This document shows, one piece after another, positions 3,165 through 17,990 of a stretch of 37,702 nt of DNA (the first letter of the stretch is position 1; the number at the start of each line of letters is the position of its first letter). Source of the stretch: a virus (Duplodnaviria; Heunggongvirae; Uroviricota; Caudoviricetes); the IMG/VR virus record IMGVR_UViG_2681813232_000007; one strand, given 5' to 3'. Below the pieces are notes generated by a model. It was not told where the DNA came from, did no database searches, and saw only the letters and a list, made by a program, of their open reading frames with translations. The translations under genes were made by a program, and so were the position numbers.

Positions 3165-4265
3165 TCATTCCATTTCGAAATCATCAATCCTCACTTCAAG
3201 CTCCAGACTGGTTGTAAAACCGTTATCGGGGTTGACGGTATGCGTCAGAGTCGTAATGGTCCATTCCGCATCATCTATCGGCTGTTTAAAGCCACTGACT
3301 TTCACTGGCATTTCCGTGTAGAGATCTGCCCGCCCTTCCGCCAGTTGTAGCGAGAATGACGCAACGCCGCGTTGCAGGCGTTCCCACTGCATTTTCGCTG
3401 CCCGTTCGGCGTTACTCCGATTAGCATAGGTGCGATTAAGTACCAGCACGTTTTCATCCGTACCCACCAGATAATCGCCCTGCTTCGTTTCCGGCTCTTT
3501 CTTCTGCTTCTTAGTCCTGCGCTTACGCTTCACCGCGGTGCTTTCTTTCTTCGCGGGTTCGCGGGTATGCAACCAGCTGGCAATTACGCCCGTGTAAGCT
3601 CCGCGATCTGCCAGGGTAAAGCGGTGACTGTCGCCGTCCTTACGTGTGATAGTGATAACCGGTAGTGGTTTACCACTGGCGCTTTTACCCTGCCCCTGTC
3701 GGATGAATAACAGATTGCCATTTTTCACCGACGCAATAGCACCGTACTGGCGCGCCAGCCGCATCAGAAAACTGCCGTCACTCTCATTGGTCTGATCTAT
3801 ATGTTCCACGGGTTTATCTGACAGGTCTTTACCCAATGCCATCTTCAGTTTGTGCCGCGCAGCTATTTCCTTCACCACTTCCCCAACGGTGGTCTTGTGC
3901 CACGACTTTTCACGACGGGTATTCAGTGTTTCACGAAAATCAGCACTTCGCGCCCGGATAGTCAGGCGGTCCGGTGCGCCAGTGTGTTCAATCTCGTCCA
4001 CCGTGAATGCCCCTTTCGGGAAAAGCGGCTGCCCCTTCCAGCCCAGCGCCAGCGTAATGACCGCACCACGGCGCGGCAGCACGATTTTTCCGTCGGCGTC
4101 GTCCAGCTCCAGATCAAGCTGGTCCGCTTCAAAGCCCCGATTGTCCGTCAGCGTCAAACTCATCAGGCGGTTATCCAGCACAGTGGTGATATCCCTGCCC
4201 TCAATACTGATGCTGAATGCGGGAGTTTTGTTGCCTTTGTTAAGCAGTTCAGAGCTGAAATTCAT
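3165..4265 (-). CDS. D: tail protein D (late control gene D family)
   Basis: 366 aa, position between ogr and U as in P2; stop overlaps ogr region, start overlaps U stop. Confidence 0.85.
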   Translation of the reverse strand: MNFSSELLNKGNKTPAFSISIEGRDITTVLDNRLMSLTLTDNRGFEADQLDLELDDADGKIVLPRRGAVITLALGWKGQPLFPKGAFTVDEIEHTGAPDRLTIRARSADFRETLNTRREKSWHKTTVGEVVKEIAARHKLKMALGKDLSDKPVEHIDQTNESDGSFLMRLARQYGAIASVKNGNLLFIRQGQGKSASGKPLPVITITRKDGDSHRFTLADRGAYTGVIASWLHTREPAKKESTAVKRKRRTKKQKKEPETKQGDYLVGTDENVLVLNRTYANRSNAERAAKMQWERLQRGVASFSLQLAEGRADLYTEMPVKVSGFKQPIDDAEWTITTLTHTVNPDNGFTTSLELEVRIDDFEME

Positions 4266-4747
4266 GACAGCAGCCCTCCCACCGTTTTACTGATATCGCT
4301 TAAGGCAGACGTTGCTGTGTCCTGCAGATTATTCAGTTGCGCACTGAGATCACCGAATATATCGGACAGGGATTCATCCACCCGTTTGAGCGACAGGGTG
4401 AACTCAATCCGGCGCGGCATACCGTCGCGGAAAAACTCCGTTTTAGTCTGATTCAGTCCCTCAATCACATACATGCCATAAATCGTGCCACTGCCTTCAA
4501 TCAGGGGCCATGCTTTCCCCTGTTCTGCCATCTGCTCCAGTGCCAGCAACGACAGCCTGCCACCTGTTATCTCCGGCATAAGAACACCGGAAAGCGTCAG
4601 CATGTCGTTGTCCGGTCCCAGAAACTGCGTGGACGGACATCGGTTTACCCGGCTGTTTGCCGCATGTCGCCAGCTGCGTTGATACTGCAGCTCCTGATAT
4701 GGCACGGTGCGCAGCATAAACACGTACAATCCCAGCACCATCATCAT
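4262..4747 (-). CDS. U: tail protein U
   Basis: 161 aa, size and position match P2 gpU; 4-nt overlap with D and T. Confidence 0.85.
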   Translation of the reverse strand: MMMVLGLYVFMLRTVPYQELQYQRSWRHAANSRVNRCPSTQFLGPDNDMLTLSGVLMPEITGGRLSLLALEQMAEQGKAWPLIEGSGTIYGMYVIEGLNQTKTEFFRDGMPRRIEFTLSLKRVDESLSDIFGDLSAQLNNLQDTATSALSDISKTVGGLLS

Positions 4748-7700
4748 GCGTCGTATCCCCCCTGATCGCTGTAGTTACTCCTGGCTTTTGCCTTCAGCCT
4801 GCGTTCACGTTCATCAAGCTGGCGGGCCACCTCCCGCGCAATATCCTGCGCACTTTGTCCTGGCTGTGTCTGGATGATGATCTGCGTCGGTGCTTCAATC
4901 CGGTAAATGGGCGGCACAGTAGCTGCACGACTCACCATCGCTTCACCGCCTTTTGCGGGAAGCGCCAAAGGATGCAACGGTGGAAGCTCTGCTGGCGCGG
5001 CAGCAACACCCATCATTCCGGCGACAACGGCAGCCAGTGCAGCTGTATTTCTCCGGCTGGTCACGTTTGCCGGGCCGTTAACAATTTCCGGCCCGTTTTC
5101 ACCGACGATGCCAAACTGCCCGCGCGGGATATAGCCGCCGCTGTCATACATCCCCGCAAAGCCATATCCCCATGACGGAAAATCACCCGATGGCATCATC
5201 ACTTTACCGTCTGCCTTCACCGTCGCAGGTTGCTGACGCGTCACGCTTTCCGGCAGTTTCGCCTTTGCAGCCTCTTTACTGACAATGCCGAGTTTCTCCA
5301 GCAACCAGGAAACGCCGGATTTCAGGGAGTCCAGCGGATGCATGACCATATTCAGCCCTTCTGCCAGTGCCTCCCCGAATCGTCGCCCCATGGCCGCTGC
5401 GCTCTGCAGTTCGGCAGAGGTCGACTTAACGGGCGTCAGCAGATCAGTAAACCAGCCCCACAGCGCCTGCACTTTGTCGCCAATCCACTGGAACACGGGC
5501 TTAAGCGGTTCGAACGCTGCACTGATGGGACCTGCCGCCGCTTTGAATCCTTCCACCACGCCACCGAGAAATGCGGTGATGGGTTGCCAGTATTTCCAGA
5601 CAACCAGCGCCACGCCCGCCAGTGCAGTAACCACAAGACCTATCGGACTGAGCAGAGCACCTAACAGACCAGATATGGCATACAGGGCAACGCGCAGCAT
5701 CGCCAGTGGACCAGATGCCAGTACTCGCAGCACCGTGCCTGCGGCGGCCAGTCCACCGCGCAGTACCGCCAGAGGATTCATAAACATCACAGCAACAGCA
5801 CGTAAACCGGATAATCCAGACCGCAAAAGTGCAACCGGCGCACCTGCTACAGTTTTCAGGACATTTCCCGTCAGTGATGCCGTGCGGCGCAAAGACGACA
5901 ACGGCGCAGTAAGTAAACCTGCGGCGTTGCCCGATGAAGCAAGCCCGCGTCGCAGCAGTGCCAGTGGCGCGCCAGCCAGCCAGGACAACGCGCTGCTGGT
6001 TCGAGTTACTGCTGCCGTAACGGAAGATAACGTTTTGATACCCAACACAGAGAATCCCAGACGGATCACTGCCAGCGGCCCCAGCACTGCAGCCAGCGCC
6101 ACCGCTAAGGTGCCGAGGCCGACGGTAACCGCAGCCACAACAGCCGATGCTTTCATCAGTGTGCCTGTCAGTTCCGGGTTAGCTTCCACCCAGCGACGCA
6201 ACGCCCCCGTGACGCTTTTCACCGTGTACAGAATATCCATCAGCGGCTGGCGCAGCGTTTCGCCCAGGCTGCTGAAGGTGTTCTGCGCTCCGGTTTTGAC
6301 CAGCAACCACTGCGCAGAAAGTGAATCCTTGTTAATGTCGGATTCTTTCTGCATGGAGCCGAGCGCATCATTGCCCGCTGTCAGTTTTAACTGACGCTGC
6401 AGTTCCGGCAGGTTGTTTGCCAGTTTCGCCGCGTCATCGCCAAACTCTTTACCAAACAACATAGTCATGGCAGACAGGCGCTTGTCCTGCGGCAGCGCGT
6501 TTACCTTCTCCAGCACGCGCTGGATGGTTCCCATCGCATCCTTCGTCATCTGCTTTTCAATCACTTCAGGATTGAGTTTCAGCAGATTCATCCCTTCAAA
6601 GAAACTCTTGCTTTGCATGGTGGCAATGGACAATTCACGCACCATCGCGTTTGCTGCACTGGCTGCAACCTCTGGCGCAGCGCCCAGTGTCAGGAAGGTG
6701 GAACCCAGCGCCGCCGCTTTACGATAATCCAGACGGTCAGCCACACCGCCCAGACGTTGCATCACATCAATGATGTCTGCCCCTTTCGACATGGCGTTAT
6801 CATCCAGATAGTTCAGCGCATCACCGAGCTGTTCAATATTGCGGGTGGGGATTTTGTAGAGCTGGGCGATTTTCCCCAGACTTTCTGACAGTTCATCCGC
6901 TGGCAGCTCAAAGGCTGTTGCCGCCTTTGCTGCCGTACTGGCGAAGGCCAGCAGGTCACGTTTCTGATCTTCCCAGCTGTCGTCAGGGTTTGCGACGTTC
7001 ATGCGCGCACCACCTTCAACCAGTGCAGCGAAGTCCACCGCACCGTTTTCCATCGGCAACTGTTCGCTGGCAGCCTTGATGGCATCCTGCATTTCATAAA
7101 AACGTGCAGTGCGGTTGCCATTATCGTCACGCAGACCATTGACCTGCTTTGCCACACCTTTCATGGCATCTTCCATGCTGGTATAGCTTTTTACTGCCGC
7201 CATCACTGGCGCACCCATTGCCAGCCCTGCAGCCGTGGTGGTGGCTCCGGCACCTGCAATACGATCACGCACCTCCAGCGAACGGGCATAACTGGCACGC
7301 GCTGCATTCATCCTGCGCTGAGCTTCCCCCAGTCGCTTCAGCCGCGCCTCCTGTTTCGAAAGTTCCTGGTTATAACGTGATGTTTCACGGGCTAAACGGG
7401 CAGTTGCTCCCGCATCGTCTTTCGCAGAAATTCCCGCCCGGTACAGTTCAGCACGCACAAGCGCCGTCTGCTGCTGCAGCTTTTTCTGGCGTTCTTCCAG
7501 GCGCTGAACAGCCAGCCGTTGACGGCCCAGAGCAACAACCTGACGTTGCGAAGGCGGCCCCATCGCTCCCAGTTCCTGACTGAGCAAATTTGCACGCTGG
7601 CGGGCATAGTTCAGCCTGTCGCCTAATTTCTGATTTTCTGCCTGCAGCTCTCGGAAGCTGTCCAGACTGCTCCCGGCCTGATCAAGCTGCTTTATTGCAT

Positions 7701-7821
7701 CGCGGGATTTTTTGACAGCAGCAGCCAGTTCTCTTGAACTGGCCTGCGCAGATCGAAATGGGCGGGTGAGCTTGTCAACCGCATTAAGAATGACCTGCAG
7801 ACGCAGATTGTTATCACTCAT
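4744..7821 (-). CDS. T: tail tape measure protein
   Basis: 1025-aa Ala/Leu-rich ORF with coiled-coil N-terminus and hydrophobic repeats, directly downstream of E/E' as in P2. Confidence 0.9.
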   Translation of the reverse strand: MSDNNLRLQVILNAVDKLTRPFRSAQASSRELAAAVKKSRDAIKQLDQAGSSLDSFRELQAENQKLGDRLNYARQRANLLSQELGAMGPPSQRQVVALGRQRLAVQRLEERQKKLQQQTALVRAELYRAGISAKDDAGATARLARETSRYNQELSKQEARLKRLGEAQRRMNAARASYARSLEVRDRIAGAGATTTAAGLAMGAPVMAAVKSYTSMEDAMKGVAKQVNGLRDDNGNRTARFYEMQDAIKAASEQLPMENGAVDFAALVEGGARMNVANPDDSWEDQKRDLLAFASTAAKAATAFELPADELSESLGKIAQLYKIPTRNIEQLGDALNYLDDNAMSKGADIIDVMQRLGGVADRLDYRKAAALGSTFLTLGAAPEVAASAANAMVRELSIATMQSKSFFEGMNLLKLNPEVIEKQMTKDAMGTIQRVLEKVNALPQDKRLSAMTMLFGKEFGDDAAKLANNLPELQRQLKLTAGNDALGSMQKESDINKDSLSAQWLLVKTGAQNTFSSLGETLRQPLMDILYTVKSVTGALRRWVEANPELTGTLMKASAVVAAVTVGLGTLAVALAAVLGPLAVIRLGFSVLGIKTLSSVTAAVTRTSSALSWLAGAPLALLRRGLASSGNAAGLLTAPLSSLRRTASLTGNVLKTVAGAPVALLRSGLSGLRAVAVMFMNPLAVLRGGLAAAGTVLRVLASGPLAMLRVALYAISGLLGALLSPIGLVVTALAGVALVVWKYWQPITAFLGGVVEGFKAAAGPISAAFEPLKPVFQWIGDKVQALWGWFTDLLTPVKSTSAELQSAAAMGRRFGEALAEGLNMVMHPLDSLKSGVSWLLEKLGIVSKEAAKAKLPESVTRQQPATVKADGKVMMPSGDFPSWGYGFAGMYDSGGYIPRGQFGIVGENGPEIVNGPANVTSRRNTAALAAVVAGMMGVAAAPAELPPLHPLALPAKGGEAMVSRAATVPPIYRIEAPTQIIIQTQPGQSAQDIAREVARQLDERERRLKAKARSNYSDQGGYDA

Positions 7822-8250
7822 CGTTGGCCCCGCTTCTCTGAATCGCTTTATACCGCCATTCCAGCACTTCGGTCAGCGGCATAACGTCAGTAACGGATGG
7901 CGGCCAGTGAAAAATGGTGGCGATATCTGCCACCAGATCGTCAACCGTCAGGCTGTCGGTAAACCGGCAAGCACCGACTTCTTCAACAAAAAAGTGACAA
8001 CCTCAACCGACATGGCAGTGAGATCTGCCGGGTCCATCTCTGCAATTTCCTGTGCAGTCAGTGCCGGACTGGAGATGCGGGGGATCACGGTCATCATCGC
8101 GTTTACATCCATATCCATAATGGCCTGCAGGCGTGTACCGCGCAGCGCACCGGACTGCGGTTTACGCAGCACAATTTCGGTGATTTCTGTTTTACCGCGC
8201 TTGATGGGGGTATCCAGTTGAATGGTCTTTTCAGTCTGCTTATCGCTCAT
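7814..8250 (-). CDS. E': E+E' tail chaperone produced by programmed -1 frameshift
   Basis: minus-strand TTTTTTG at 7987-7993 inside E; hand translation of the -1 frame continues open (FFVEEVGACRF...RSGANDE) to a TGA at 7814-7816 that overlaps the T start codon (GATGAGTGA). Confidence 0.75.
7948..8250 (-). CDS. E: tail assembly chaperone E
   Basis: 100-aa ORF upstream of T; contains the T6G slippery site near its 3' end. Confidence 0.85.
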   Translation of the reverse strand: MSDKQTEKTIQLDTPIKRGKTEITEIVLRKPQSGALRGTRLQAIMDMDVNAMMTVIPRISSPALTAQEIAEMDPADLTAMSVEVVTFLLKKSVLAGLPTA

Positions 8251-8304
8251 TTTGCTGTCCTGTCAATTGGGTTCTGGCGCGGTATCCCGCGCCGTTCAGA
8301 TATA

Positions 8305-8820
8305 TCAGAGGCCGAGGGCGTTGCGGTGCGCTTCCATCAGGTCCACACCGTCCACAATTTCCACCATGTTGATAAGGTCCACTTCATAGAGCACCTCACC
8401 ATTGATGGTCAGCTTCGCGTAGCTGTTGGTACTGGTCACTTTGGTGGTGTTGCTTTCGCCCGTCTTCCACTCGCCGGAATCCACTTCTTTGTGACGTCCA
8501 CGCACGACAAGCTCCACGGCCTGCACTTCCCCGGTATCGTCACGCTGAATAGAGCCGGTAAAGCGCAGCTGGATGCCATCCACCGTGGCTTTACCCATCT
8601 GTTTAAACAGCAGCAATTCAGTACCACCAATGGAAAATTCTGTGTCCAGCGCACAGTCATCAAGCCCCAGATCCACATCCACCGCACCCGGCATTCCGCC
8701 GCCGCGATACTTCTCATATTTGCGGGTAAATTTCGGCAGCGTCAGCGACTCAACGATCCCCTGCCAGTTGTTCCCGTCGTTAAACAGGTTCAGGTGTTTT
8801 AATTTGCGTGGTAAAGCCAT
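8305..8820 (-). CDS. FII: tail tube protein FII
   Basis: 171 aa, size and position match P2 FII. Confidence 0.88.
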   Translation of the reverse strand: MALPRKLKHLNLFNDGNNWQGIVESLTLPKFTRKYEKYRGGGMPGAVDVDLGLDDCALDTEFSIGGTELLLFKQMGKATVDGIQLRFTGSIQRDDTGEVQAVELVVRGRHKEVDSGEWKTGESNTTKVTSTNSYAKLTINGEVLYEVDLINMVEIVDGVDLMEAHRNALGL

Positions 8821-8829
8821 GTTGTCCCC

Positions 8830-10002
8830 TTACGCGCTGACCTGGCTGGCGAAATTCACCAGGTACTGATCGGTGATGCGCTGACGCAGCATCAGGTTTT
8901 CAAGTGGCGGCACTGGCGTGTAGTCGTAGTCGATGGTGAGTTTTCCGGCTTTCAGCGTGTCTTTGTCGTTCACCGACTCATCCAGCCAGCAATCACCACC
9001 AATGAGATAGCCCTGACTGACCAGGCTGCGCATTTTGGCGCGGATACCTTCGATAATGTCGCGGGCCAGCGACGGGTTAAGCGGTTTATCCACCGCCCAC
9101 ATGTGTGCTTCTGCCATCGTGTCCATCAGCACCTGCGCCGTGCGGGTGTAGTTTTCGAAGGCAAAGAGCGGGTCATCACTCAGGCAGCGGGAACCCCAGA
9201 AGCGGAAACCGTCTTTACGCACAAGCGTGGTGACGTCGTTCTGGTTCAGCAGACCTGCATCGGTTGCCGGGTCCTGCAGATCCCAGAACACATCTGCAGA
9301 AATTCCGGTGATACCGTTCACGCCCACGTTGGACAGGCTTTTGTGCCATCCGGTCTGCTCGTCAATTTTGGCGCGCAGACCAAGCGCACGGGCGGTGGCA
9401 TATGCCGTTGCTTCGGCATTCAGCACCGTGTCCCAGCCAGTAAAGTCAGGCCAGATCAGCATCCCTTCGCGCTGGCTGAAGTTTTCGCGGTAAGTGATCG
9501 CCTCCTGCACTGTCTTGCAGCCATACGCTGACAGGTAAGCAAATCCACGCAGGCTTTGCGCCACGCTCAGCAACTCAGTAGCTACCGCCTTGGTGTCGTG
9601 GCCTGGCACGCCGAGAATGCGCGGTTTAACGCCGAGCTGTGACTGGGCAGATAACAGGGCTTTCATACCTGTTTTTTTACCTTCAGCAGTCACTGCGCCG
9701 ATGATATTGGTCGTGGTTTCGTCTTCCGTTTCACCCTGCGGCACACGCACAACAATGGTCACGGGTTTTGCCTGGTCAGCGATGGCATCCAGCGAACGGG
9801 CCAGAGTACCTGACTCACCCGCTTTACCGCTGGCAGTCAGCACATCAGTGATCAGTACGGGTTTATTAAGAGGAAACATTTTTGCATCGGCATCATCGCC
9901 CGTGCAGACCATACCCACGATGGCGGTGCTCACCGTGGTAATAGATCGGGTGCCTTCGTTGACTTCAACAACGCGCACCCCGTGGTGGTAATCCTGAGCC
10001 AT
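8830..10002 (-). CDS. FI: contractile tail sheath protein FI
   Basis: 390 aa, size and position match P2 FI. Confidence 0.9.
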
Positions 10003-10078
10003 AGTGGCGAACCTCCTGATTGGATTAGGCTTCGCCCTATGTTGAAGTGATTGTGCCTGACAAACAGCTAAGCGCAGT

Positions 10079-10096
10079 TGTGTCGTTATTCACACA
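10079..10096. promoter_or_regulatory. candidate Ogr-binding site (TGT-N12-ACA) of the late promoter upstream of FI
   Basis: TGTgtcgttattcacACA in the FI upstream intergenic region, centred ~85 nt from the FI start codon. Confidence 0.5.
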
Positions 10097-10144
10097 AAAT
10101 GACGGTATTTGTCTACTTGCAGGGATAATCAAAATAATGCTGAT

Positions 10145-10711
10145 TCAGGGGGATTCATTGCTCTTATTTGCCGGAAATTTTCTATAAATGGTAGAAACGC
10201 CTACATCAAAAATCAGTGCAATACGCTGTCTTGATTCTCCGGCCTCGAGTAAACGCCCAATCTGTGCCCACTGTTCGGTGGTCAACTTAGGACGGCGTCC
10301 ACCTACTCTGCCTTTGGCACGAGCTGCAGCCAGCCCTGCCATGGTATGTTCAACTATCAGTTCGCGTTCCATTTCAGCCAGGGCCCCCATGACATGAAAA
10401 AAGAAACGGCCCATTGGGGTGCTGGTATCAATACTGTCAGTCAGGCTTCGGAAATTCACGCCACGCTGACGCAACTCTTCTATCAGCGTAACAAGATGCC
10501 GCATACTGCGCCCCAACCTGTCCAGCTTCCAGACAACCAGAGTGTCTCCTGCCGATAGTGTCCTGAGCAGCTTTTTCAGCCCCGGTCTGTCGGACTTGGT
10601 GCCACTGATTTTATCCTCAAAAATCCGCTCACATCCCGCACAGTTCAGTGCATTGCGTTGCAAATCGGTGTTCTGGTCATTTGTTGACACGCGTACATAG
10701 CCAATAAGCAT
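10145..10711 (-). CDS. serine recombinase, DNA invertase (Gin/Pin/Cin/Hin family)
   Basis: MLIGYVRVSTNDQNTDLQRNAL... with catalytic Ser in the YVRVSTxDQ motif and C-terminal HTH (GVSTIYRKF); near-identical by recall to Mu Gin over the N-terminus; ORF-track N-terminal extension to 11026 rejected. Confidence 0.9.
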   Translation of the reverse strand: MLIGYVRVSTNDQNTDLQRNALNCAGCERIFEDKISGTKSDRPGLKKLLRTLSAGDTLVVWKLDRLGRSMRHLVTLIEELRQRGVNFRSLTDSIDTSTPMGRFFFHVMGALAEMERELIVEHTMAGLAAARAKGRVGGRRPKLTTEQWAQIGRLLEAGESRQRIALIFDVGVSTIYRKFPANKSNESP

Positions 10712-10738
10712 GATCATCCCCCTGAATAAAAACCGGAG

Positions 10739-11215
10739 ATGATGCCAGTTAGCCGTTATCTCTGCATTTTCATAAACGTTCAATTGGGAGAAGCGGCAAA
10801 ACGGGATGTCGGAACCGGTAATAATCAACTCCCGGACATGTCCGCATTTGGTATGTCGCGAAACGGACAAACTGCCTGGGATATTCTCCCAAATGGTATG
10901 ATTCGACAGGCTGGCACTGTGACACTGACACCAGTTGGTAACTTCAACGCGCAGGTGCTTGGTGGGGTGACGTACTACACCCATTACTACAGGGTTAATT
11001 TCCCCAGACAATTCCCAAATGCACAAATAGCAACGCTGGCAACACTAGCGAGTTACAGCTATTCGACCCAGGCAACAATGGCCGGAAAATCACTGGCAAC
11101 GCATCGCGATACTGATTCTGGCACTGACGTATCAAGAACGCGATTCACTGTGGCGTATACGACACCCAATCTCGGCGAAACACCGACACTGCATTTTGAA
11201 GCAATAGGATACTAA
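10739..11215 (+). CDS. alternative tail-fibre C-terminal variable segment (Sv'-like, promoterless until inversion)
   Basis: opposite orientation to H, homologous to the H variable-region start, ends in ...EAIGY like H ends ...IALGY; the 5' end of this ORF upstream of the crossover is probably not translated in this orientation. Confidence 0.6.
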   Translation: MMPVSRYLCIFINVQLGEAAKRDVGTGNNQLPDMSAFGMSRNGQTAWDILPNGMIRQAGTVTLTPVGNFNAQVLGGVTYYTHYYRVNFPRQFPNAQIATLATLASYSYSTQATMAGKSLATHRDTDSGTDVSRTRFTVAYTTPNLGETPTLHFEAIGY

Positions 11216-11217
11216 AT

Positions 11218-11451
11218 ATGGAGAATATCTATTTCAGCCCAACGACCGTTGGTTTTTATGTTTCTGAACAAGAGCGACCTGATGATGCGGTTGAAGTCTC
11301 GCCAGAGGTGGAGGCATTTTTGAGGGAGTGTGTTATCTGGGGAGCGGATACATTTAACGTAGAGCGAGATGCAGCAACGGTGACATATCCAACAGAACTG
11401 CTTGAATATGTCACCACCTACAACGCCCCCGTTAAATATCCTGCGGATTGA
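11218..11451 (+). CDS. tail-fibre assembly protein fragment (U'-like, apparently truncated)
   Basis: 77-aa ORF with a Tfa-like N-terminus (MENIYFSPTTVGFYVSE), lacking the conserved C-terminal Tfa region; convergent with and overlapping the 3' end of the other Tfa gene. Confidence 0.45.
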   Translation: MENIYFSPTTVGFYVSEQERPDDAVEVSPEVEAFLRECVIWGADTFNVERDAATVTYPTELLEYVTTYNAPVKYPAD

Positions 11452-11842
11452 CAGGCCATACGGGTTTTGCTGTATCAACGCGCATCAGCAAGACCCGGTA
11501 TTTTTTCCATTCAGATAACGCGGCGGTTTCTTCTGCCGTCGCGATTTCCGCATCAAAAGCATCCTGTCTCCAGGCTATTTCCTTATCAGCCATAGAACGC
11601 AATACCGTTCTTTTCTGTTCAGCCTGAATAATCTGTTGTTCAGCGGAGAGTGGCGGGATATCAATCCACGCAGGATTACCATTTTTATCAGCCCCCAGCG
11701 TTTTGCCTTGTGGCGCTACGCCTGTGTAAATTGCCATTGTTTCATCATCAACATCAACGCCATTTTCAGGCCATGAACCGGCGCTGATATATACCTCTTT
11801 TAGTGCTTTCGGATAGAAAGAGCCTTTATAAAATTTATTCAT
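11432..11842 (-). CDS. G: tail-fibre assembly chaperone (gpG/U-like)
   Basis: start set to MNKFYKGSFY (ATG at 11842, GGGG Shine-Dalgarno upstream) immediately after the H stop; C-terminal Tfa-like motif SEWKKYRVLLMRVDTAKPVWPVNP. Confidence 0.8.
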   Translation of the reverse strand: MNKFYKGSFYPKALKEVYISAGSWPENGVDVDDETMAIYTGVAPQGKTLGADKNGNPAWIDIPPLSAEQQIIQAEQKRTVLRSMADKEIAWRQDAFDAEIATAEETAALSEWKKYRVLLMRVDTAKPVWPVNPQDI

Positions 11843-11844
11843 TC

Positions 11845-13362
11845 TTAATACCCCAGCGCGATAAAACAACAATCTTCGGTGCCCTCTCCGGATGGCGACC
11901 AGTTCTGAATACTGATATGCGTTCTGCTGGCAATACGCACATTCATCGCGGCATTGTAGCCAGATGTTCCACGGTTTCCGGTCGCAAATAAGCCTGCATA
12001 GGGAAAAGCAAATGGTAAGGCATATCCAGCATCAGCTCCCTTTTGTGTTGCCACCGTTCCCCACTGCAACATAAGTTTCACCGGGTTTCCTGTCGTCGCA
12101 ATGCATGGAATGTAGATGTAGCCATTCCCTGACATCATTGACCTGAAGCTGTCTAAATCCAGTAACTTCGAGGCATTATCTGCTCCAACATCTCGTGTTG
12201 CGGCGGTCCCTAACTGGAGCGCATTTTGGAAGGCTGATACATCAGAAATATCAGCTCCATTAGCCGATTTCTGCATAGCTCCGGAGGCTTTATTTATCGT
12301 TTCGCCCAAACCAAGGTATGCGAGAAGACCAGCTACATCCTTTCCACTCAAATTAGTCAGCGTATTGTCCAGCGGTTGTTTACCTGCCAGCGCATTAAGC
12401 ATTGTCGTGGCAAAGTTCGGGTCATTCCCCAGCGCCGCAGCCAGTTCGTTCAGTGTATCCAGTGCAGCAGGTGCAGACCCCACCATTGCCGCAATTGCCG
12501 ATTTCACAAAAGCCGTGGTGGCAATCTGTGTATTGTTAACCGACTGTGCGGCAGTGGGGGCTGTTGGCGTTCCGGTGAGTGCCGGACTTAACAGCGGCGC
12601 TTTCAGTGCCAGCGCATTGTTAATGGTGGTACTGAATTTCGGGTCATTGTTTATGGCTGCGGCAATTTCTTTCAGCGTGTCCAGCGTGGCTGGCGCACCA
12701 TTAATAAGAGCCGTCAGTGCCACCTGAACAAACGCGGTGGTCGCAACCTGCGTGGTGTTATTCCCCGCCGCTGGCGTTGGCGCTTTGGGTGTCCCGGTAA
12801 ACATAGGACTTTCTTTGGGTGCATACTGTGAATGCGGGTCCGGTGCTGCAAGATGTTTTGCCATCTGATCATCCACGTACACCTTCAGCTCCAGTACCTT
12901 ATCATCCACATACTTGCGGGTTGCCAGCACGACGGCAGGGTCGATTTTCAGGGTGATATTGTCCGTGCTGCTGGTAATCAGCACCATGCGCACGGTCTGG
13001 GTGCGCCCGCTGCCTTCAGCCAGTTGCGGCTTATAGCTTTCCGGGCAGTTGCCCACGGCAATCAATGCCCCGGATTCATCAAACAGGCCCACTTCACGTA
13101 TCCACCAACCGCCCTCGTTTTCAGGGATCACCTGTTCAGCAATAATCTGGCTGCTGTTTTGCGGGTCGATATAGAGCATATTCAGCGCAGCCCGGCGTTT
13201 CTCATTTACCAGTGCAGTCTGCTTTGCGTCCGGCGTTGGTAATGTTCCGCCGCCATCGCCTACCGCCATATGGGTAATTTTTAACGGCACACCGAGCGCG
13301 GCGGCGCTGGCAAGTTTCGCCGCGCCAATATCCGTCAGCAGGGTATAAAATTTTGTGCTCAT
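11845..13362 (-). CDS. H: tail fibre protein H
   Basis: 505 aa; N-terminal ~300 aa resemble P2 gpH by recall (MAVGDGGG, ESYKP.LAEGSGR, LNELAAALGNDPNFATTM.NALAGKQP); C-terminal part variable. Confidence 0.9.
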   Translation of the reverse strand: MSTKFYTLLTDIGAAKLASAAALGVPLKITHMAVGDGGGTLPTPDAKQTALVNEKRRAALNMLYIDPQNSSQIIAEQVIPENEGGWWIREVGLFDESGALIAVGNCPESYKPQLAEGSGRTQTVRMVLITSSTDNITLKIDPAVVLATRKYVDDKVLELKVYVDDQMAKHLAAPDPHSQYAPKESPMFTGTPKAPTPAAGNNTTQVATTAFVQVALTALINGAPATLDTLKEIAAAINNDPKFSTTINNALALKAPLLSPALTGTPTAPTAAQSVNNTQIATTAFVKSAIAAMVGSAPAALDTLNELAAALGNDPNFATTMLNALAGKQPLDNTLTNLSGKDVAGLLAYLGLGETINKASGAMQKSANGADISDVSAFQNALQLGTAATRDVGADNASKLLDLDSFRSMMSGNGYIYIPCIATTGNPVKLMLQWGTVATQKGADAGYALPFAFPYAGLFATGNRGTSGYNAAMNVRIASRTHISIQNWSPSGEGTEDCCFIALGY

Positions 13363-13964
13363 GGATTCACTCTCATTGTGTCAATAACATGGACCGCCCC
13401 GCCTTCATGCGCGGTGCCGCCAGAAATAATTGTTTCGTTGATATACGGATAGATCGTGATTTCTTCACCAAGATAGCTGGCGGCCCCTACCCAGTGCGGG
13501 CCACTAGTTTGCAGATTGATGGACATGCCGATCATGTGACGGCTACATGGTTTGGCATCGCTTATCAGCCGCTCAAGTTCCAGATAGGTATCTTCAGTGA
13601 TGCCCTGGTCTTGCACGCCGATGTCCAGGCGAAACGTGCCCGGTGTTTCTCCAGTCTGCCACCACTCAATAATGCGTATCAGGAAGCCGAACGGCTCCAC
13701 CACCCGCCGCACGGCACTGGTGGTTCCTTTATGCTGATGAATATAAAAAGCATCCTTCACCACCTGGCGCTTGACGCTTTCTGTCCAGCCCTCGTCCCAG
13801 CGATCCACAGAGAACGCCCAGGCGAGATAAGGCAGGAAACTGACCGGACAGGTCGCCGGATCCCACAGGTCACGCAGCGGCACCTGCAAATCAGAAATCC
13901 CGCTGCACGCTTGCGCCAGTCGGCGCTCCAGTGGCGTTGAACCCGGTGGCAGCAGACTATTCAT
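13359..13964 (-). CDS. I: baseplate assembly protein I
   Basis: 201 aa, size and position match P2 gpI; overlaps H start by 4 nt. Confidence 0.85.
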   Translation of the reverse strand: MNSLLPPGSTPLERRLAQACSGISDLQVPLRDLWDPATCPVSFLPYLAWAFSVDRWDEGWTESVKRQVVKDAFYIHQHKGTTSAVRRVVEPFGFLIRIIEWWQTGETPGTFRLDIGVQDQGITEDTYLELERLISDAKPCSRHMIGMSINLQTSGPHWVGAASYLGEEITIYPYINETIISGGTAHEGGAVHVIDTMRVNP

Positions 13965-14865: not shown

Positions 14866-15211
14866 TCTCTGCTCCTGTTGATACGGAAAGGGACACAGGC
14901 ACACCGTTATTCCGCCGCCCGGTCAGCTCCACCACCATTGAACCGTCAAAATTGCTGTTAATAGTGATGGAATCCAGCGTCAGCCGTGGCTCCCAGCGAC
15001 TCAGTGCCACATACACAGCCGACATGACCTGCAGGCGTAACGCCGGATTTTGTGGCTGGTCTATCAGTGCCGACAGCAGGGAACCATATTCCCGACGGGC
15101 AATGCGGCTACCCTGCGGCGTCAGCAAAATGTCCCGCACCGACTGGCGCAGATGGTCAATATCAGTAATGGCTTTACCGCTGGTATTGTTCATCCCGCTA
15201 TAAAGCGTCAT
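14852..15211 (-). CDS. W: baseplate wedge protein W
   Basis: 119 aa, size and position match P2 gpW. Confidence 0.85.
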   Translation of the reverse strand: MTLYSGMNNTSGKAITDIDHLRQSVRDILLTPQGSRIARREYGSLLSALIDQPQNPALRLQVMSAVYVALSRWEPRLTLDSITINSNFDGSMVVELTGRRNNGVPVSLSVSTGAENGSD

Positions 15212-15786
15212 ACCGGGCCTCCGGTTGTGTCGCCGCCTTTCAGGACGCCAGTATGCTGATGTGCATCAACCACAATTCCGTTAGAACTCATTGCACCGCC
15301 GCCCTGGGTAACACCACCATTGATCACTACTTCGCTGTTAATGCGTGTGCGGTCAGCCTCCAGTACAAACTCACTGGTTTTCAGGGTGATGTTGTCGGCA
15401 GCTTCAATGACCATGGATTTGATTCCCCTGACATACCAGCGCCCGGTAGCGGGTTCGTATTCAAACCAGCCACCGTCAGGATGTTCTGTCACACAGGCGT
15501 CCACCGACGCCGACGGTGGTGCGAACTGATTCGAATATACAGCGGGCAGCGCAAAGGCGGTTTCCAGATTGCCGCCCAGACTCAGCAGCACCACCTGCTC
15601 ACCTTCCGATGGTCGCCACCATGTGCGGGCATTACCCGCGCGCAGCGTCAGCCAGTTAATCCAGTTGGTTTCAAGGTCGCCCGTTTTCACCCGACAAAGC
15701 CAGTGTTCCCGGTCCACTTCGGTGACTACACCAGTGCGGATCAGGTTGGTGATAAGGCGCATGATTTCGGTTAATTGTGCGTTCAT
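15208..15786 (-). CDS. V: baseplate spike/hub protein V
   Basis: 192 aa, N-terminus and overall sequence resemble P2 gpV by recall. Confidence 0.85.
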   Translation of the reverse strand: MNAQLTEIMRLITNLIRTGVVTEVDREHWLCRVKTGDLETNWINWLTLRAGNARTWWRPSEGEQVVLLSLGGNLETAFALPAVYSNQFAPPSASVDACVTEHPDGGWFEYEPATGRWYVRGIKSMVIEAADNITLKTSEFVLEADRTRINSEVVINGGVTQGGGAMSSNGIVVDAHQHTGVLKGGDTTGGPV

Positions 15787-15886: not shown

Positions 15887-17146
15887 ATGTTTAGATTATC
15901 TAGTGTCAAGATTGAAGGTTTTTGGGGAAGACTAAATGCATCATGTTCATTTAATGAAGATGTAAATATTATTATTGGTCGAAATGGGACCGGTAAAACA
16001 ACCTTTATGAATATTCTTCACTCAGTTCTGGCATTAGAACTCGAATCACTAAATGAGAATAGTTTTGATAATGTAACAATAAAAATAAAAGAAGGAAGCA
16101 AAACTAAAACAATAAAAGTTGTGAGTAAATTTGACATAACTAAAGCTTTGCCTACGTTTGAATATACAATTTCTAGAAAGAAATATATTATCAGATCCTT
16201 TGAAGATCGTAGACTACCTATATATATGAGGAGAAAATATCAGGAAGACGTTGAAAAACTTAAGTTAGAGTTAGATAAATTAGTTGCTTTATCTTCTCTA
16301 TCAGTTTACCGACTTAGAAGCGGTGAAGATTTTGAAATCAGAGACAAATATGGCTCAAAATTAATCAACCCTGTTGATTACCGATTAGAACAATTATTGC
16401 AGAACCTAACAAAATATCAACTTTATTTATCACAAAGAGCTCGTGATGTTTCTGCAATATTACAGAAAGAGGTTCTTGCTTCTATTCTTTATAGTAAAGA
16501 AGATGGTATCGATGACACATTTAACTTTTCTTTTGATAAAGAAAAAGAACGTAGAAATTTAATAGCTGCATATTCTCAGCTTGGAGCTTTTGATAGTGAT
16601 GTCAGAAAGAAGATTAACTTTCACGTTGAATCTATTGCCAAAACATTTGAAGAATTACGACTTGCAGAAAAAAATAACAGAAATATTTTAAATGTAGATT
16701 ACAGATCATTTGAGGCATTACGAAAGACGCAAAGAATTATAAAGATGTCTTTAAAATCCGAGGAGAAAATAAAAAACATATTTCTTCCTATAAATCTATT
16801 TTTAGAAACATTACATGAGTTCATAACCGATAAAAAATTTAATTTTATCTCCGGTGAGCTAGTAATAGAAAACGAGCATGGGCCGATTAGCCATAGTAAT
16901 TTATCGTCTGGTGAAAAACAGCTATTAATTCTTTTTATTGAAACTTTGCTACAGCAAAACAAACCTTTCATCTATCTTACTGATGAACCAGAATTATCGC
17001 TACATATTGCATGGCAACGAAAAATAATACCTGCAATCAAACAACTTAATCCTAATGCGCAAATTATCGCCGCTACGCATTCACCAGAAGTGGCTTCTAA
17101 ATATCGAAATGCAATCTTTGATATGGAGAAATTGGTTCATGGATGA
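15887..17146 (+). CDS. ABC-type ATPase, candidate anti-phage protein (AriA/AbiLi-like)
   Basis: 419 aa; Walker A GRNGTGKTT (residues 31-39), signature-like LSSGEKQ, Walker B-like FIYLTDEPELSLH; AAGGA Shine-Dalgarno upstream; strongly AT-rich compared with flanking phage genes. Confidence 0.7.
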   Translation: MFRLSSVKIEGFWGRLNASCSFNEDVNIIIGRNGTGKTTFMNILHSVLALELESLNENSFDNVTIKIKEGSKTKTIKVVSKFDITKALPTFEYTISRKKYIIRSFEDRRLPIYMRRKYQEDVEKLKLELDKLVALSSLSVYRLRSGEDFEIRDKYGSKLINPVDYRLEQLLQNLTKYQLYLSQRARDVSAILQKEVLASILYSKEDGIDDTFNFSFDKEKERRNLIAAYSQLGAFDSDVRKKINFHVESIAKTFEELRLAEKNNRNILNVDYRSFEALRKTQRIIKMSLKSEEKIKNIFLPINLFLETLHEFITDKKFNFISGELVIENEHGPISHSNLSSGEKQLLILFIETLLQQNKPFIYLTDEPELSLHIAWQRKIIPAIKQLNPNAQIIAATHSPEVASKYRNAIFDMEKLVHG

Positions 17147-17990
17147 TTTCCATTATTCTGCCGAAGCAGAAAATGTAATGAATTTATTTTACCAAGCTGA
17201 AGCCATGGTTTATGTTGAAGGCCCAGATGATATTTGCTTTTGGGAAATCATCTTTAATAAAGCTAGTTCATTAAAGGTTGAAATCAAAGATGTTGGCGGC
17301 TGTGAAGAATTAAAAAAATATATTGATAGAGTTACTGATGAAGATCTTCAAATTATAATTGCATGTGATGCAGACTTCACTACATTTGAAAATGAGGAAA
17401 ACGCTGATAGTCGCATTGTAAAAACTTATGGGCACTCCATCGAAAACACGTTTATTGACAAAACAGGCATATATAAGGCAATAAAAACTCTAGGAAAATT
17501 ACCTCAAAAGATAATGAACGATGTCAACGTCGATTCTTGGACAGAAGACTTTTATACCAAAATGGAACCCCTAATAAAACTTGATATATACAATCATATT
17601 TATAGAAAAGGCATTTCAGTTATTGGTGACAGTGCAGATCGTTTCATGAAATCTAGAAAATCAAATGAAATTTGCGAGCAAAAAATCACGAGTTACAAAA
17701 ACACCATCATTGAAAAATTAGGTGTGGAACCAGATAACATCGATTCATCTTTCAAATCAAAATCGATAGAATACAGAAAGTGGCTTAGAGGTCATTTTCT
17801 TTTTTCTGCAGTACATAGGTACATTAGCACAACTGCAGAAAAAAATGGAAAAAAAGTATCCTTATCATATGAATCATTATATTCCAATTTAATGAATACA
17901 TTTGAATCCAATTTTACCAATACTCATATTGAGTTTAATCATTACCACGAAAAAATTAAAGCCATAAATATGCCACACGAAATGAAATAA
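17139..17990 (+). CDS. DUF4435/TOPRIM-like putative nuclease, candidate anti-phage effector (AriB/AbiLii-like)
   Basis: start set at MDDFHY (ATG at 17139) overlapping the upstream stop as ATGGATGA; conserved acidic motifs YVEGPDD and IIACDADF consistent with a TOPRIM Glu plus DxD; AT-rich. Confidence 0.65.
   Translation: MDDFHYSAEAENVMNLFYQAEAMVYVEGPDDICFWEIIFNKASSLKVEIKDVGGCEELKKYIDRVTDEDLQIIIACDADFTTFENEENADSRIVKTYGHSIENTFIDKTGIYKAIKTLGKLPQKIMNDVNVDSWTEDFYTKMEPLIKLDIYNHIYRKGISVIGDSADRFMKSRKSNEICEQKITSYKNTIIEKLGVEPDNIDSSFKSKSIEYRKWLRGHFLFSAVHRYISTTAEKNGKKVSLSYESLYSNLMNTFESNFTNTHIEFNHYHEKIKAINMPHEMK

Follow-up and report, generated by a model that had tools for sequence, protein, structure and literature searches.

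Inverting part of a tail fibre is a textbook way for a phage to hedge its bets on host range. In the window analysed here, a 37,702-nucleotide stretch of phage DNA, a locus spanning positions 10145 to 13362 combines a serine invertase, a 1,532-bp invertible segment and the tail-fibre gene H, and it raises the question of whether both orientations of the segment are used, or whether one of them has decayed, as the initial annotation suspected from the short length of the second accessory gene. A DNA flip-switch of this well-known type is a kind of system already described. In particular, inversion in the P2-like prophages of EPEC E2348/69 was shown by sequencing and PCR (Goldberg et al. 2014, PMC4272514), so that the existence of a further fibre switch in such a prophage adds little in itself.

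All five open reading frames of the initial annotation were recovered at their positions in the ORF listing of the window, and the features of the locus are collected in Table 1. The flanks are of the P2 type, with the sheath gene on one side and I, J, W and V on the other. Specifically, these ORFs and the RefSeq annotation of the identical locus in EC11 give a tail module in the order V-W-J-I-H-(G)-FI-FII with a gpH-type fibre N-terminus, as in P2-like phages, and the region is 96% identical to phage Cartapus, placed in the Peduoviridae. The prediction of a Gin/Pin-like invertase at the P2 Z/fun position, adjoining an invertible segment, is borne out; invertases have been noted as frequent at this hotspot (bioRxiv 10.1101/2024.10.15.618418).

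Table 1. Features of the invertase and tail-fibre locus (positions in the window).
Feature	Position	Strand	Basis
Serine DNA invertase, 188 aa, ATG at 10711	10145–10711	-	Pfam Resolvase (E 5e-52) and HTH_7 (E 1.5e-15)
Weak terminator-like hairpin and T-run, between crossover site and invertase start	10731–10750	-	Consensus scan only
Fibre-tip ORF as annotated	10739–11215	+	Gp53-like_C
Invertase-side crossover site, core TT at 10779–10780	10767–10792	+	EC26 junction comparison
Invertible segment of 1,532 bp, lying between the core dinucleotides	10781–12312		Reverse-complemented in E. coli EC26
Silent alternative tip (Sv'-like cassette), 144 codons	10781–11215	+	Gp53-like_C
Accessory gene (77 aa), partner of the alternative tip	11218–11451	+	No Pfam family
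tfa, canonical tail fibre assembly protein (Tfa/gpG/U-like), 136 aa	11432–11842	-	Caudo_TAP
H, whole gene, 505 aa	11845–13362	-	Phage_tail_fib and Gp53-like_C
Currently expressed variable tip (Sv-like), H residues 351–505	11845–12312	-	Gp53-like_C
H-side crossover site, core AA (+ strand) at 12313–12314	12301–12326	-	Exchange point versus EC26
Constant part of H, residues 1–350, P2 gpH-type N-terminus	12313–13362	-	Phage_tail_fib (E 4e-65)

The most direct evidence for inversion came from a prophage of E. coli EC26, which is 99.7–99.9% identical, with collinear flanks and the segment flipped: positions 10779–12317 of the window appear there as the reverse complement, with a segment identity of 99.9%. 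When the EC11/window arrangement is set against that of EC26, a comparison between genomes and not within one culture, the exchange is reciprocal and falls exactly at a central TT, the flipped left site reading TTTTCATAAACG TT GGTTTGGGCGAA and the flipped right site TTCTCGCATACC TT CAATTGGGAGAA. Among 5,426 complete E. coli genomes, the H/Sv junction was present in 41 and the H/Sv' junction in 40, while the two invertase-side junctions were present in 49 and 86, counts that describe lysogen genomes and do not measure virion function. Both orientations therefore occur in nature, as had been expected, and they are related by a base-precise, in-frame exchange.

Tail-fibre cassettes are mosaic, and an invertase-plus-cassette module is found at 93% identity on plasmids of 94–96 kb; moreover, the unequal invertase-side junctions (86 versus 49) point to cassettes having been re-paired with other partners. 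Such observations would suit an origin of the two arrangements by homologous recombination or cassette exchange between phages. However, EC26 has the entire 1.5-kb segment in plain reverse complement (99.9% identity), the reciprocal exchange occurs at one dinucleotide, where the shared homology is too short for RecA, and the breakpoints coincide with the centres of gix/pix-like sites adjoining a Gin homologue. We consider this origin extremely improbable, and site-specific inversion is the reading that we retain.

The EC26 comparison also defined the crossover sites. The invertase-side site is TTTTCATAAACG-TT-CAATTGGGAGAA, and the H-side site, read in the direction of H, is TTCTCGCATACC-TT-GGTTTGGGCGAA, encoding ...LLAYL/GLGE. 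The two lie in inverted orientation and consist of 12-bp imperfect dyad half-sites around matching 2-bp cores, as expected of Din sites, with 17 of their 26 bases in common. In a scan of the 37.7-kb window with the e14-type half-site, which gave only two short sites, the H-side site was the best 26-mer and the invertase-side site the second best. In addition, the core motif ACCTTGGTTTGGG is common to both sites and to the published inverted repeats of e14 and of the EPEC P2-like prophages, and Cartapus has the same outer half of the invertase-side site, from which plasmid H8-A differs by two substitutions. The match to Mu gix (17/26 for the H-side site and 14/26 for the other) did not rise above chance in the scan of the window, shuffled sequence reaching 16–18; the ACG-TAAA flanking the H-side site matches Mu gix as well. 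A generic inverted-repeat search over 10000–13400 likewise returned no pair at the true junctions.

A different crossover had been proposed on the basis of partial similarity between AATAAAgCCtCCGGAG and AATAAAaaCCGGAG. This AATAAA/CCGGAG junction was rejected because joining there breaks the reading frame, and the EC26 comparison places the true crossover about 40 bp away; the invertase-side copy of the string sits in the hairpin and T-run at 10731–10750. More generally, working Din sites can be degenerate enough (17/26 common bases) to escape repeat finders and consensus scans, and comparison with a genome in the opposite orientation fixes them to the base.

In both orientations the fibre reading frame remains open. 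In the window, H residues 1–350 are followed by a 155-aa tip beginning GLGETINK and ending IALGY, and then by the 136-aa Tfa, whereas in the flipped state the same residues are joined in frame to a 144-aa tip, beginning QLGEAAKRDVG and ending EAIGY, and followed by the 77-aa ORF. The two H proteins, from EC11 and EC26, are identical up to L350, and that of EC26 is an intact fusion of 494 residues (...GLLAYL/QLGEAAKRDVG) in which the alternative tip occupies residues 351–494. The annotated start of the tip ORF, at 10739, is outside the segment, and the stretch before 10781 is not part of the fibre. The expectation of alternative C-termini for H, both provided with a downstream accessory gene of their own, is thus confirmed, as are the block common to the two tips (QLGTAATRDVG/QLGEAAKRDVG; BLASTP E 7e-5) and their shared GY end. 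Relatives of the alternative tip in three other loci (L004, L008 and L006) are 85%, 86% and 53% identical. The tfa gene, cognate to the expressed tip, matches Caudo_TAP over its whole length (E 2e-31) and phrog_188 (E 4e-42); its 3' end overlaps the convergent 77-aa ORF by 20 bp.

The invertase belongs to the Gin/Pin/Cin/Hin (Din) family, with a catalytic domain and a C-terminal HTH, and its start, MLIGYVRVS, contains the nucleophile position Ser9. It shares 139 of 184 aligned residues with Mu Gin (75.5%), the first 22 being identical, in agreement with the near-identity first noticed at the N-terminus; it matches the PHROG 125 DNA invertase (E 1e-98) and aligns over residues 1–184 with the Gin structure 3uj3 (PDB; E 5e-93). 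Even closer copies are found in Cartapus (186/188 identical) and in a prophage of E2348/69 (187/188, the sole difference being residue 122). The invertase and H are transcribed in one direction, as are gin and S in Mu; in a promoter scan, no sigma-70-like site was seen for the invertase. A degenerate Fis-like 15-mer lies at positions 71–85 of the gene, the same place as in Mu gin, in a search whose consensus is too loose to be decisive and which gave no second site at the 48-bp spacing; a DNA alignment with Mu gin did not establish an enhancer signature either.

All together, these data make it highly likely, in our judgement, that the locus serves a P2-like (Peduoviridae) E. coli prophage as a two-state host-range switch of the Din type, operating by site-specific inversion, with both states working. 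The resident invertase (10145–10711) would recombine the site at 10767–10792 with that at 12301–12326 at their common TT core and so flip 1,532 bp, presumably with the help of Fis and an enhancer. Starting from the orientation of the window, in which H 1–350 carries the 155-aa tip with the canonical 136-aa Tfa encoded downstream, inversion would place H 1–350 in frame with the 144-aa tip and the gene for the 77-aa protein downstream. The latter, which probably acts in fibre assembly, would serve the alternative tip as its natural full-length partner, so that working fibres are expected in either state.

This last point depends on the nature of the 77-aa gene. The ORF is much shorter than the neighbouring tfa (77 versus 136 aa), it has no Caudo_TAP match, and the C-terminal domain that it lacks drives trimerisation in published models of Tfa (PMC9608196); a truncated Tfa would leave the flipped state with a misfolded or absent fibre and the switch half-dead. 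The resemblance to Tfa is indeed confined to the N-terminus, where the motif YFSxxTxGFY...PDDAVEV is common to both: hhalign gave 93.9% (E 1.6e-7) over residues 3–35 only, and positions 43–80 of phrog_188 match the protein (E 9e-5). BLASTP against the neighbouring Tfa returned nothing, none of 18 family members matched Pfam, with E values of up to 1 allowed, and neither NCBIfam nor Pfam held a family for the 77-aa protein. The ORF therefore resembles a Tfa in its fibre-specific N-terminal region and in its position directly after the fibre gene, and differs from one in lacking the conserved C-terminal helical domain recognised by Pfam.

Against truncation, however, the length of the gene is constant. 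The family comprises 34 clusters from Escherichia, Citrobacter, Enterobacter and Phytobacter, with identities as low as 59%; complete members have 75–81 aa (nearly all 77–80), and invariant residues run along the entire alignment. A profile search of 1.84 billion representatives gave short members only. The dN/dS of 0.08–0.25 indicates purifying selection. In addition, the gene always follows the same tip type, also in other phage backbones, including a non-P2 phage of E. kobei; it starts after a 2-nt gap from the tip ORF, a synteny repeated in L004, L006, L008 and EC26. In P2-like loci devoid of an invertase (I, H with the same tip type, 77-aa gene, sheath) it is the sole gene in the G slot, and in L006 the sheath gene lies just 118 nt away. 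The AlphaFold2 model is compact and confident (pLDDT 93). Since, moreover, the H/Sv' junction is as common as H/Sv, there is no sign of a defective second state, and we regard a truncated gene with a half-dead switch as quite improbable. The earlier comparison of the ORF with Tfa thus holds for the absent C-terminal domain, the likeness being limited to the first ~35 residues, and not for the truncation drawn from it.

As judged from these comparisons, the 77-aa ORF is the full-length natural partner of the alternative tip type and not a truncation. The protein is most probably a fibre-binding chaperone of minimal size, or else a factor associated with the tip, in which only the Tfa N-terminal motif has been kept. 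The model had no fold match in the PDB and only weak matches in BFVD, such as one to a 60-aa protein of Pantoea phage LIMEzero named 'tail fiber assembly protein' (E 0.04), so that no structural link to the N-domain of Mu Tfa is established. We tentatively propose, as a possibility that we hold somewhat short of probable, that the protein represents an undescribed minimal class of fibre accessory protein, with the N-terminal fibre-binding motif of Tfa and without its C-terminal oligomerisation domain. If so, at least one gp53-like tip type would do without that domain, which is core in current models. The gene offers a natural test case for what the domain is needed for. In practice, an ORF annotated automatically as 'hypothetical' or read as 'truncated Tfa' is the conserved cognate partner of one fibre-tip type, and transplants of the alternative tip in phage or tailocin engineering should include it.

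The invertase of the window itself carries a private substitution, R122H (codon at 10346–10348). Residue 122 is the helix-E arginine position (R123 in Hin, R122 in Gin, R125 in resolvase) needed for synapsis, and it is this copy only that lacks the arginine, which is kept in Mu Gin, EC26, Cartapus, E2348/69 and plasmid H8-A. An exact 61-mer search found H122 in 4 of 623 genomes, a rare allele, and all four share one orientation, which is not significant. In Hin, neither cleavage nor a synaptic complex was obtained with R123C, and non-conservative substitutions were strongly inhibitory (PMC2724282, PMC4513852), while in Tn3 resolvase R125A/K slowed cleavage ~30-fold and reduced synapsis (PMC2794168). 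An invertase lesion, which the initial annotation had named as evidence against a switch, is thus present in part, as a substitution at the Hin-R123 position in this copy. By this analogy the window's own invertase is probably weak or inactive, and this one rare change in helix E may have left the switch of the lineage frozen, as a fossil fixed in the Sv/Tfa state. On the other hand, His for Arg is a milder change than Cys for Arg, Tn3 R125A/K retained partial recombination (PMC2794168), and both crossover sites are intact. The two sides appear to us evenly balanced for this prophage.

Trans action of Din invertases is established for Gin, Pin, Cin and Hin. Invertases from other prophages could therefore act on these sites; where no other Din invertase of the cell does so, the segment may be locked. 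PinQ, for example, inverts the e14 segment (PMC12529663).

Among known systems, the G segment of Mu with Gin (and the C segment of P1 with Cin) has the same arrangement of constant part, Sv, U and inverted U' and Sv', with the invertase co-directional with the fibre gene. Mu also shares the 12-2-12 layout of 26-bp sites of recognisably related sequence, and the residues encoded downstream of the site are similar (GLQETVN in Mu, GLGETIN here). In contrast, Mu has perfect 34-bp inverted repeats, a TC core and a 3-kb segment, where this locus has sites with 17/26 bases in common, a TT core and 1.5 kb; here, moreover, the backbone is P2-like, the tips are gp53-like, and one accessory gene encodes the 77-aa protein instead of a ~175-aa U'. 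Compared with lambda Tfa, P2 gpG and Mu U (Caudo_TAP), this protein has the N-terminal motif and lacks the family-defining C-terminal helical domain.

The same site motif occurs in the repeats of the e14 P segment (Pin) and of the EPEC E2348/69 P2-like loci, AAACCTTGGTTTGGGAGAAGG and ACCTTGGTTTGGGGGAAGG, versus ATACCTTGGTTTGGGCGAA here (PMC4272514). The EPEC loci also share the P2-like context and the alternative C-termini for one fibre protein, and differ in having other cassettes, repeats of up to 215 bp and, in one case, three sites and four states (PMC4272514). The locus at 0.878 Mb in E2348/69, where the near-identical invertase is encoded, was considered as experimental support and set aside: it is rearranged and is not among the published phase-variable loci, and therefore gives no direct support. 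Finally, Escherichia phage Cartapus (LF82 prophage, Elveevirus, Peduoviridae) is alike in its flanks (96%), outer half-sites and layout, whereas its cassettes are different and include two canonical Tfa genes (131 and 139 aa), and its inner half-sites are identical to each other and thus form a longer inverted repeat.

The P2-type tail module occupies 8.8-15.8 kb of the window, on the minus strand. Between the sheath gene and the tail fibre gene H, at the position where P2 itself carries Z/fun, there are four genes, namely a serine recombinase, a fibre-tip ORF, a 77-aa ORF and the canonical tail fibre assembly gene tfa, and the P2 genes I, J, W and V lie further along from H. A prophage with 100% identical sequence is found in E. 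coli EC11 and in three other complete genomes, and the flanks match phage Cartapus (Peduoviridae) at 96% identity. In gene order and orientation, the region mirrors the S-U-U'-S'-gin layout of Mu. The initial annotation had described this anatomy correctly, including the QLG..A..RDVG block and the GY at both tip ends. In addition, the 3' ends of the convergent 77-aa ORF and tfa share 20 bp (11432-11451). The terminal part of the 77-aa ORF contains a 14-nt inverted repeat (93% complementary, 9-nt loop; 11379-11415), located 17 nt past the tfa stop codon and with no T-run after it.

Features of the tail-fibre region and of the neighbouring gene insertion
Feature	Position	Strand	Remarks
Sheath	8830-10002	-	P2-type tail module
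Serine recombinase, 188 aa	10145-10711	-	Resolvase + HTH_7
Terminator-like hairpin + T-run	10731-10750	-	Between crossover site and invertase start codon
Fibre-tip ORF	10739-11215	+	Gp53-like_C
77-aa ORF	11218-11451	+	Accessory gene
Canonical Tfa	11432-11842	-	Caudo_TAP
H, tail fibre	11845-13362	-	P2-type tail module
Two inserted genes	15887-17990	+	Between P2 gene V (15208-15786, minus strand) and tail-completion genes

The same prophage is present in E. coli EC26, with flanks 99.7-99.9% identical, and there window positions 10779-12317 are reverse-complemented at 99.9% identity. The proposed invertible tail-fibre switch exists. When the four junctions of the window and EC26 are aligned, the exchange is seen to be reciprocal and to fall precisely on a TT dinucleotide. 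Specifically, the invertase-side site (10767-10792) reads TTTTCATAAACG TT CAATTGGGAGAA and the H-side site (12326-12301, in the H direction) reads TTCTCGCATACC TT GGTTTGGGCGAA, and the EC26 junctions are both recombinant combinations of these half-sites. The inversion is genuine, with both ends fixed at single-base resolution. The same alignment shows that the junctions had been mislocated, and the partial similarity pointed out in the initial annotation is not the crossover site. The string there taken as a gix remnant is contained in the hairpin upstream of the invertase, which might insulate this gene from late transcripts reading through the segment.

Both sites are built as imperfect dyads in the 12-2-12 arrangement of gix, cix, pix and hix. 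Mu gix (TTATCCAAAACC TC GGTTTACAGGAA) matches the H-side site at 17/26 positions, the likeness running on into the next codons. Both window sites also contain a motif of the ACCTTGGTTTGGG type, which PMC4272514 (Table S1) gives for the P segment of e14 and for the invertible P2-like loci of EPEC. When the 37.7-kb window was scored against the e14-type half-site TTCTCCCAAACC, the two sites were the best two 26-mers (scores 21 and 17; next 15); since there are just two such high-scoring sites, the system has two sites and two states and is not a shufflon. A repeat search revealed no inverted repeat at the junctions. The sites were missed by eye because they have only 17/26 bases in common and, scored against Mu gix alone, neither rises above shuffled sequence.

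The codon for L350 of H contains the crossover core. In the window, H consists of residues 1-350 followed by GLGETINK...IALGY (155 aa), with the 136-aa Tfa 2 nt downstream; in EC26, the same residues 1-350 continue in frame into QLGEAAKRDVG...EAIGY (144 aa; total 494 aa), and the 77-aa ORF starts 2 nt after H. The opening 14 codons of the window fibre-tip ORF lie outside the segment and belong to no fibre. Among 5,426 complete E. coli genomes, queries spanning the junctions found H joined to the tip now expressed (Sv) in 41 genomes and to the silent alternative (Sv') in 40. On the invertase side, Sv' adjoins the invertase in 49 genomes and Sv in 86, an excess from which it follows that the Sv cassette also pairs with other partners. 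The entire invertase and cassette module occurs at ~93% identity on 94-96-kb plasmids with phage genes, which indicates module exchange between P2-like prophages and phage-plasmids. One such copy, on E. coli H8 plasmid A (L003, 94 kb; 3868-9707), comprises the invertase, Sv', 77-aa and Tfa genes at ~93% identity and adjoins a 4-kb tail-fibre gene annotated as a pseudogene.

The 77-aa ORF had been read as a chaperone that looks truncated and may leave the second state defective. Constant length, purifying dN/dS and synteny with the same tip show that it is not truncated, and a defective second state is not supported. The 77-aa family forms 34 clusters at 90% identity in Escherichia, Citrobacter, Enterobacter and Phytobacter, with identity down to 59%; nearly all complete members measure 77-80 aa (two are longer, 84 and 99 aa), invariant residues are spread along the full length, and pairwise dN/dS is 0.08-0.25. 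Exhaustively searching 1.84 billion representatives with a profile gained only further short proteins, and no long relative above the weak-hit zone. In the invertase-less P2-like phages L004/L005 and L006, the gene order is I - H - 77-aa family gene - sheath, the H tips share 85% or 53% identity with the silent cassette, and the 77-aa family gene alone fills the G slot (118 nt from the sheath gene in L006). Likewise, an Enterobacter kobei prophage of non-P2-like type has a 77-aa family gene after that for a fibre protein of 250 aa, which bears the same tip (86% identical).

AlphaFold2 models the 77-aa protein as a compact beta-beta-beta-alpha-beta-beta-alpha fold (pLDDT 93). Residues 3-35 are homologous to the canonical Tfa N-terminus (phrog_188; hhalign probability 93.9%), and the remainder has no counterpart in Pfam, NCBIfam or PDB. 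Published models of Mu Tfa and Pam3 gp25 have the variable N-terminal domain bind the fibre and the conserved C-terminal helices trimerise (PMC9608196); the 77-aa family lacks these helices as a family trait. We infer that the protein is a cognate assembly or tip-associated factor of the Sv' tip type. In two distant proteins of ~200 aa, P0045 and P0046, two tandem copies of the Tfa N-terminal motif (YFSxxTxGFY...PDDAxEI) precede a Tfa-like C-terminus.

In conclusion, the window switch is a Din-type fibre switch, with the enzyme, sites and exchange point of that family. A scan for a Fis enhancer in the invertase gene, with a loose consensus, gave one degenerate Fis-like 15-mer (gene positions 71-85, as in Mu gin) and no partner at 48-bp spacing. 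The switch is most closely related to Mu G/Gin, e14 P/Pin and the P2-like loci of EPEC, the last shown to phase-vary (PMC4272514), and a recent survey noted invertases and inverted neighbours at the P2 Z/fun hotspot (bioRxiv 10.1101/2024.10.15.618418). The switch is of a known kind, with some novelty in the 77-aa family, which retains only the Tfa N-terminus; the original observation is confirmed and its interpretation supported in part.

Residues 1-184 of the recombinase align with Mu Gin (PDB 3uj3; E 5e-93, 75.5% identity), and residues 1-22, Ser9 included, are identical. The helix-E arginine of the Din family is absent from this copy: residue 122, equivalent to Hin R123, is His. Mu Gin, EC26, Cartapus, plasmid H8-A and an E2348/69 prophage all have Arg there; the invertase of the last is identical at 187/188 residues and differs at this position only. 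Of 623 genomes with this allele family, only 4 have the exact 61-nt stretch around codon 122, namely EC11, XJW9B277, DETEC-E223 and DETEC-S560. They are the ones in which the locus is 100% identical, and all have it in the Sv-expressing orientation. EC590, like EC26, has R122 together with the same cassettes. Hin R123C lacks both cleavage and the synaptic complex, non-conservative substitutions being strongly inhibitory (PMC2724282 Table 1; PMC4513852), and Tn3 resolvase R125A/K keeps partial activity, with cleavage ~30-fold slower and weaker synapsis (PMC2794168). Because His is a milder change, we would give about an even chance that the window copy is locked or very slow. R122H, a different possible defect from the one first proposed, is the more serious candidate. 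Action in trans is established among Gin, Pin, Cin and Hin, and other Din invertases of the same cell could flip the segment, as PinQ acts on that of e14 (PMC12529663).

In EC26, where the segment is flipped, helix E of the invertase (L001, 1646-2212) bears a separate change, A112D; Gin M114, which was altered in the crystallised variant of Gin, is two residues away. In E2348/69 (L012; NC_011601 875404-882464), a locus not among the published phase-variable ones, a 384-aa hypothetical gene comes after the near-identical invertase, and then V, W and J reversed, so that the fibre region of this prophage has probably undergone a larger rearrangement or decay. Finally, the two genes inserted beside V encode a 419-aa AriA-like ATPase (PADLOC E 6e-40; AAA_21/AAA_15) and a 311-aa AriB-like DUF4435 protein (PADLOC E 3e-24), together a prophage-borne PARIS anti-phage defence pair.
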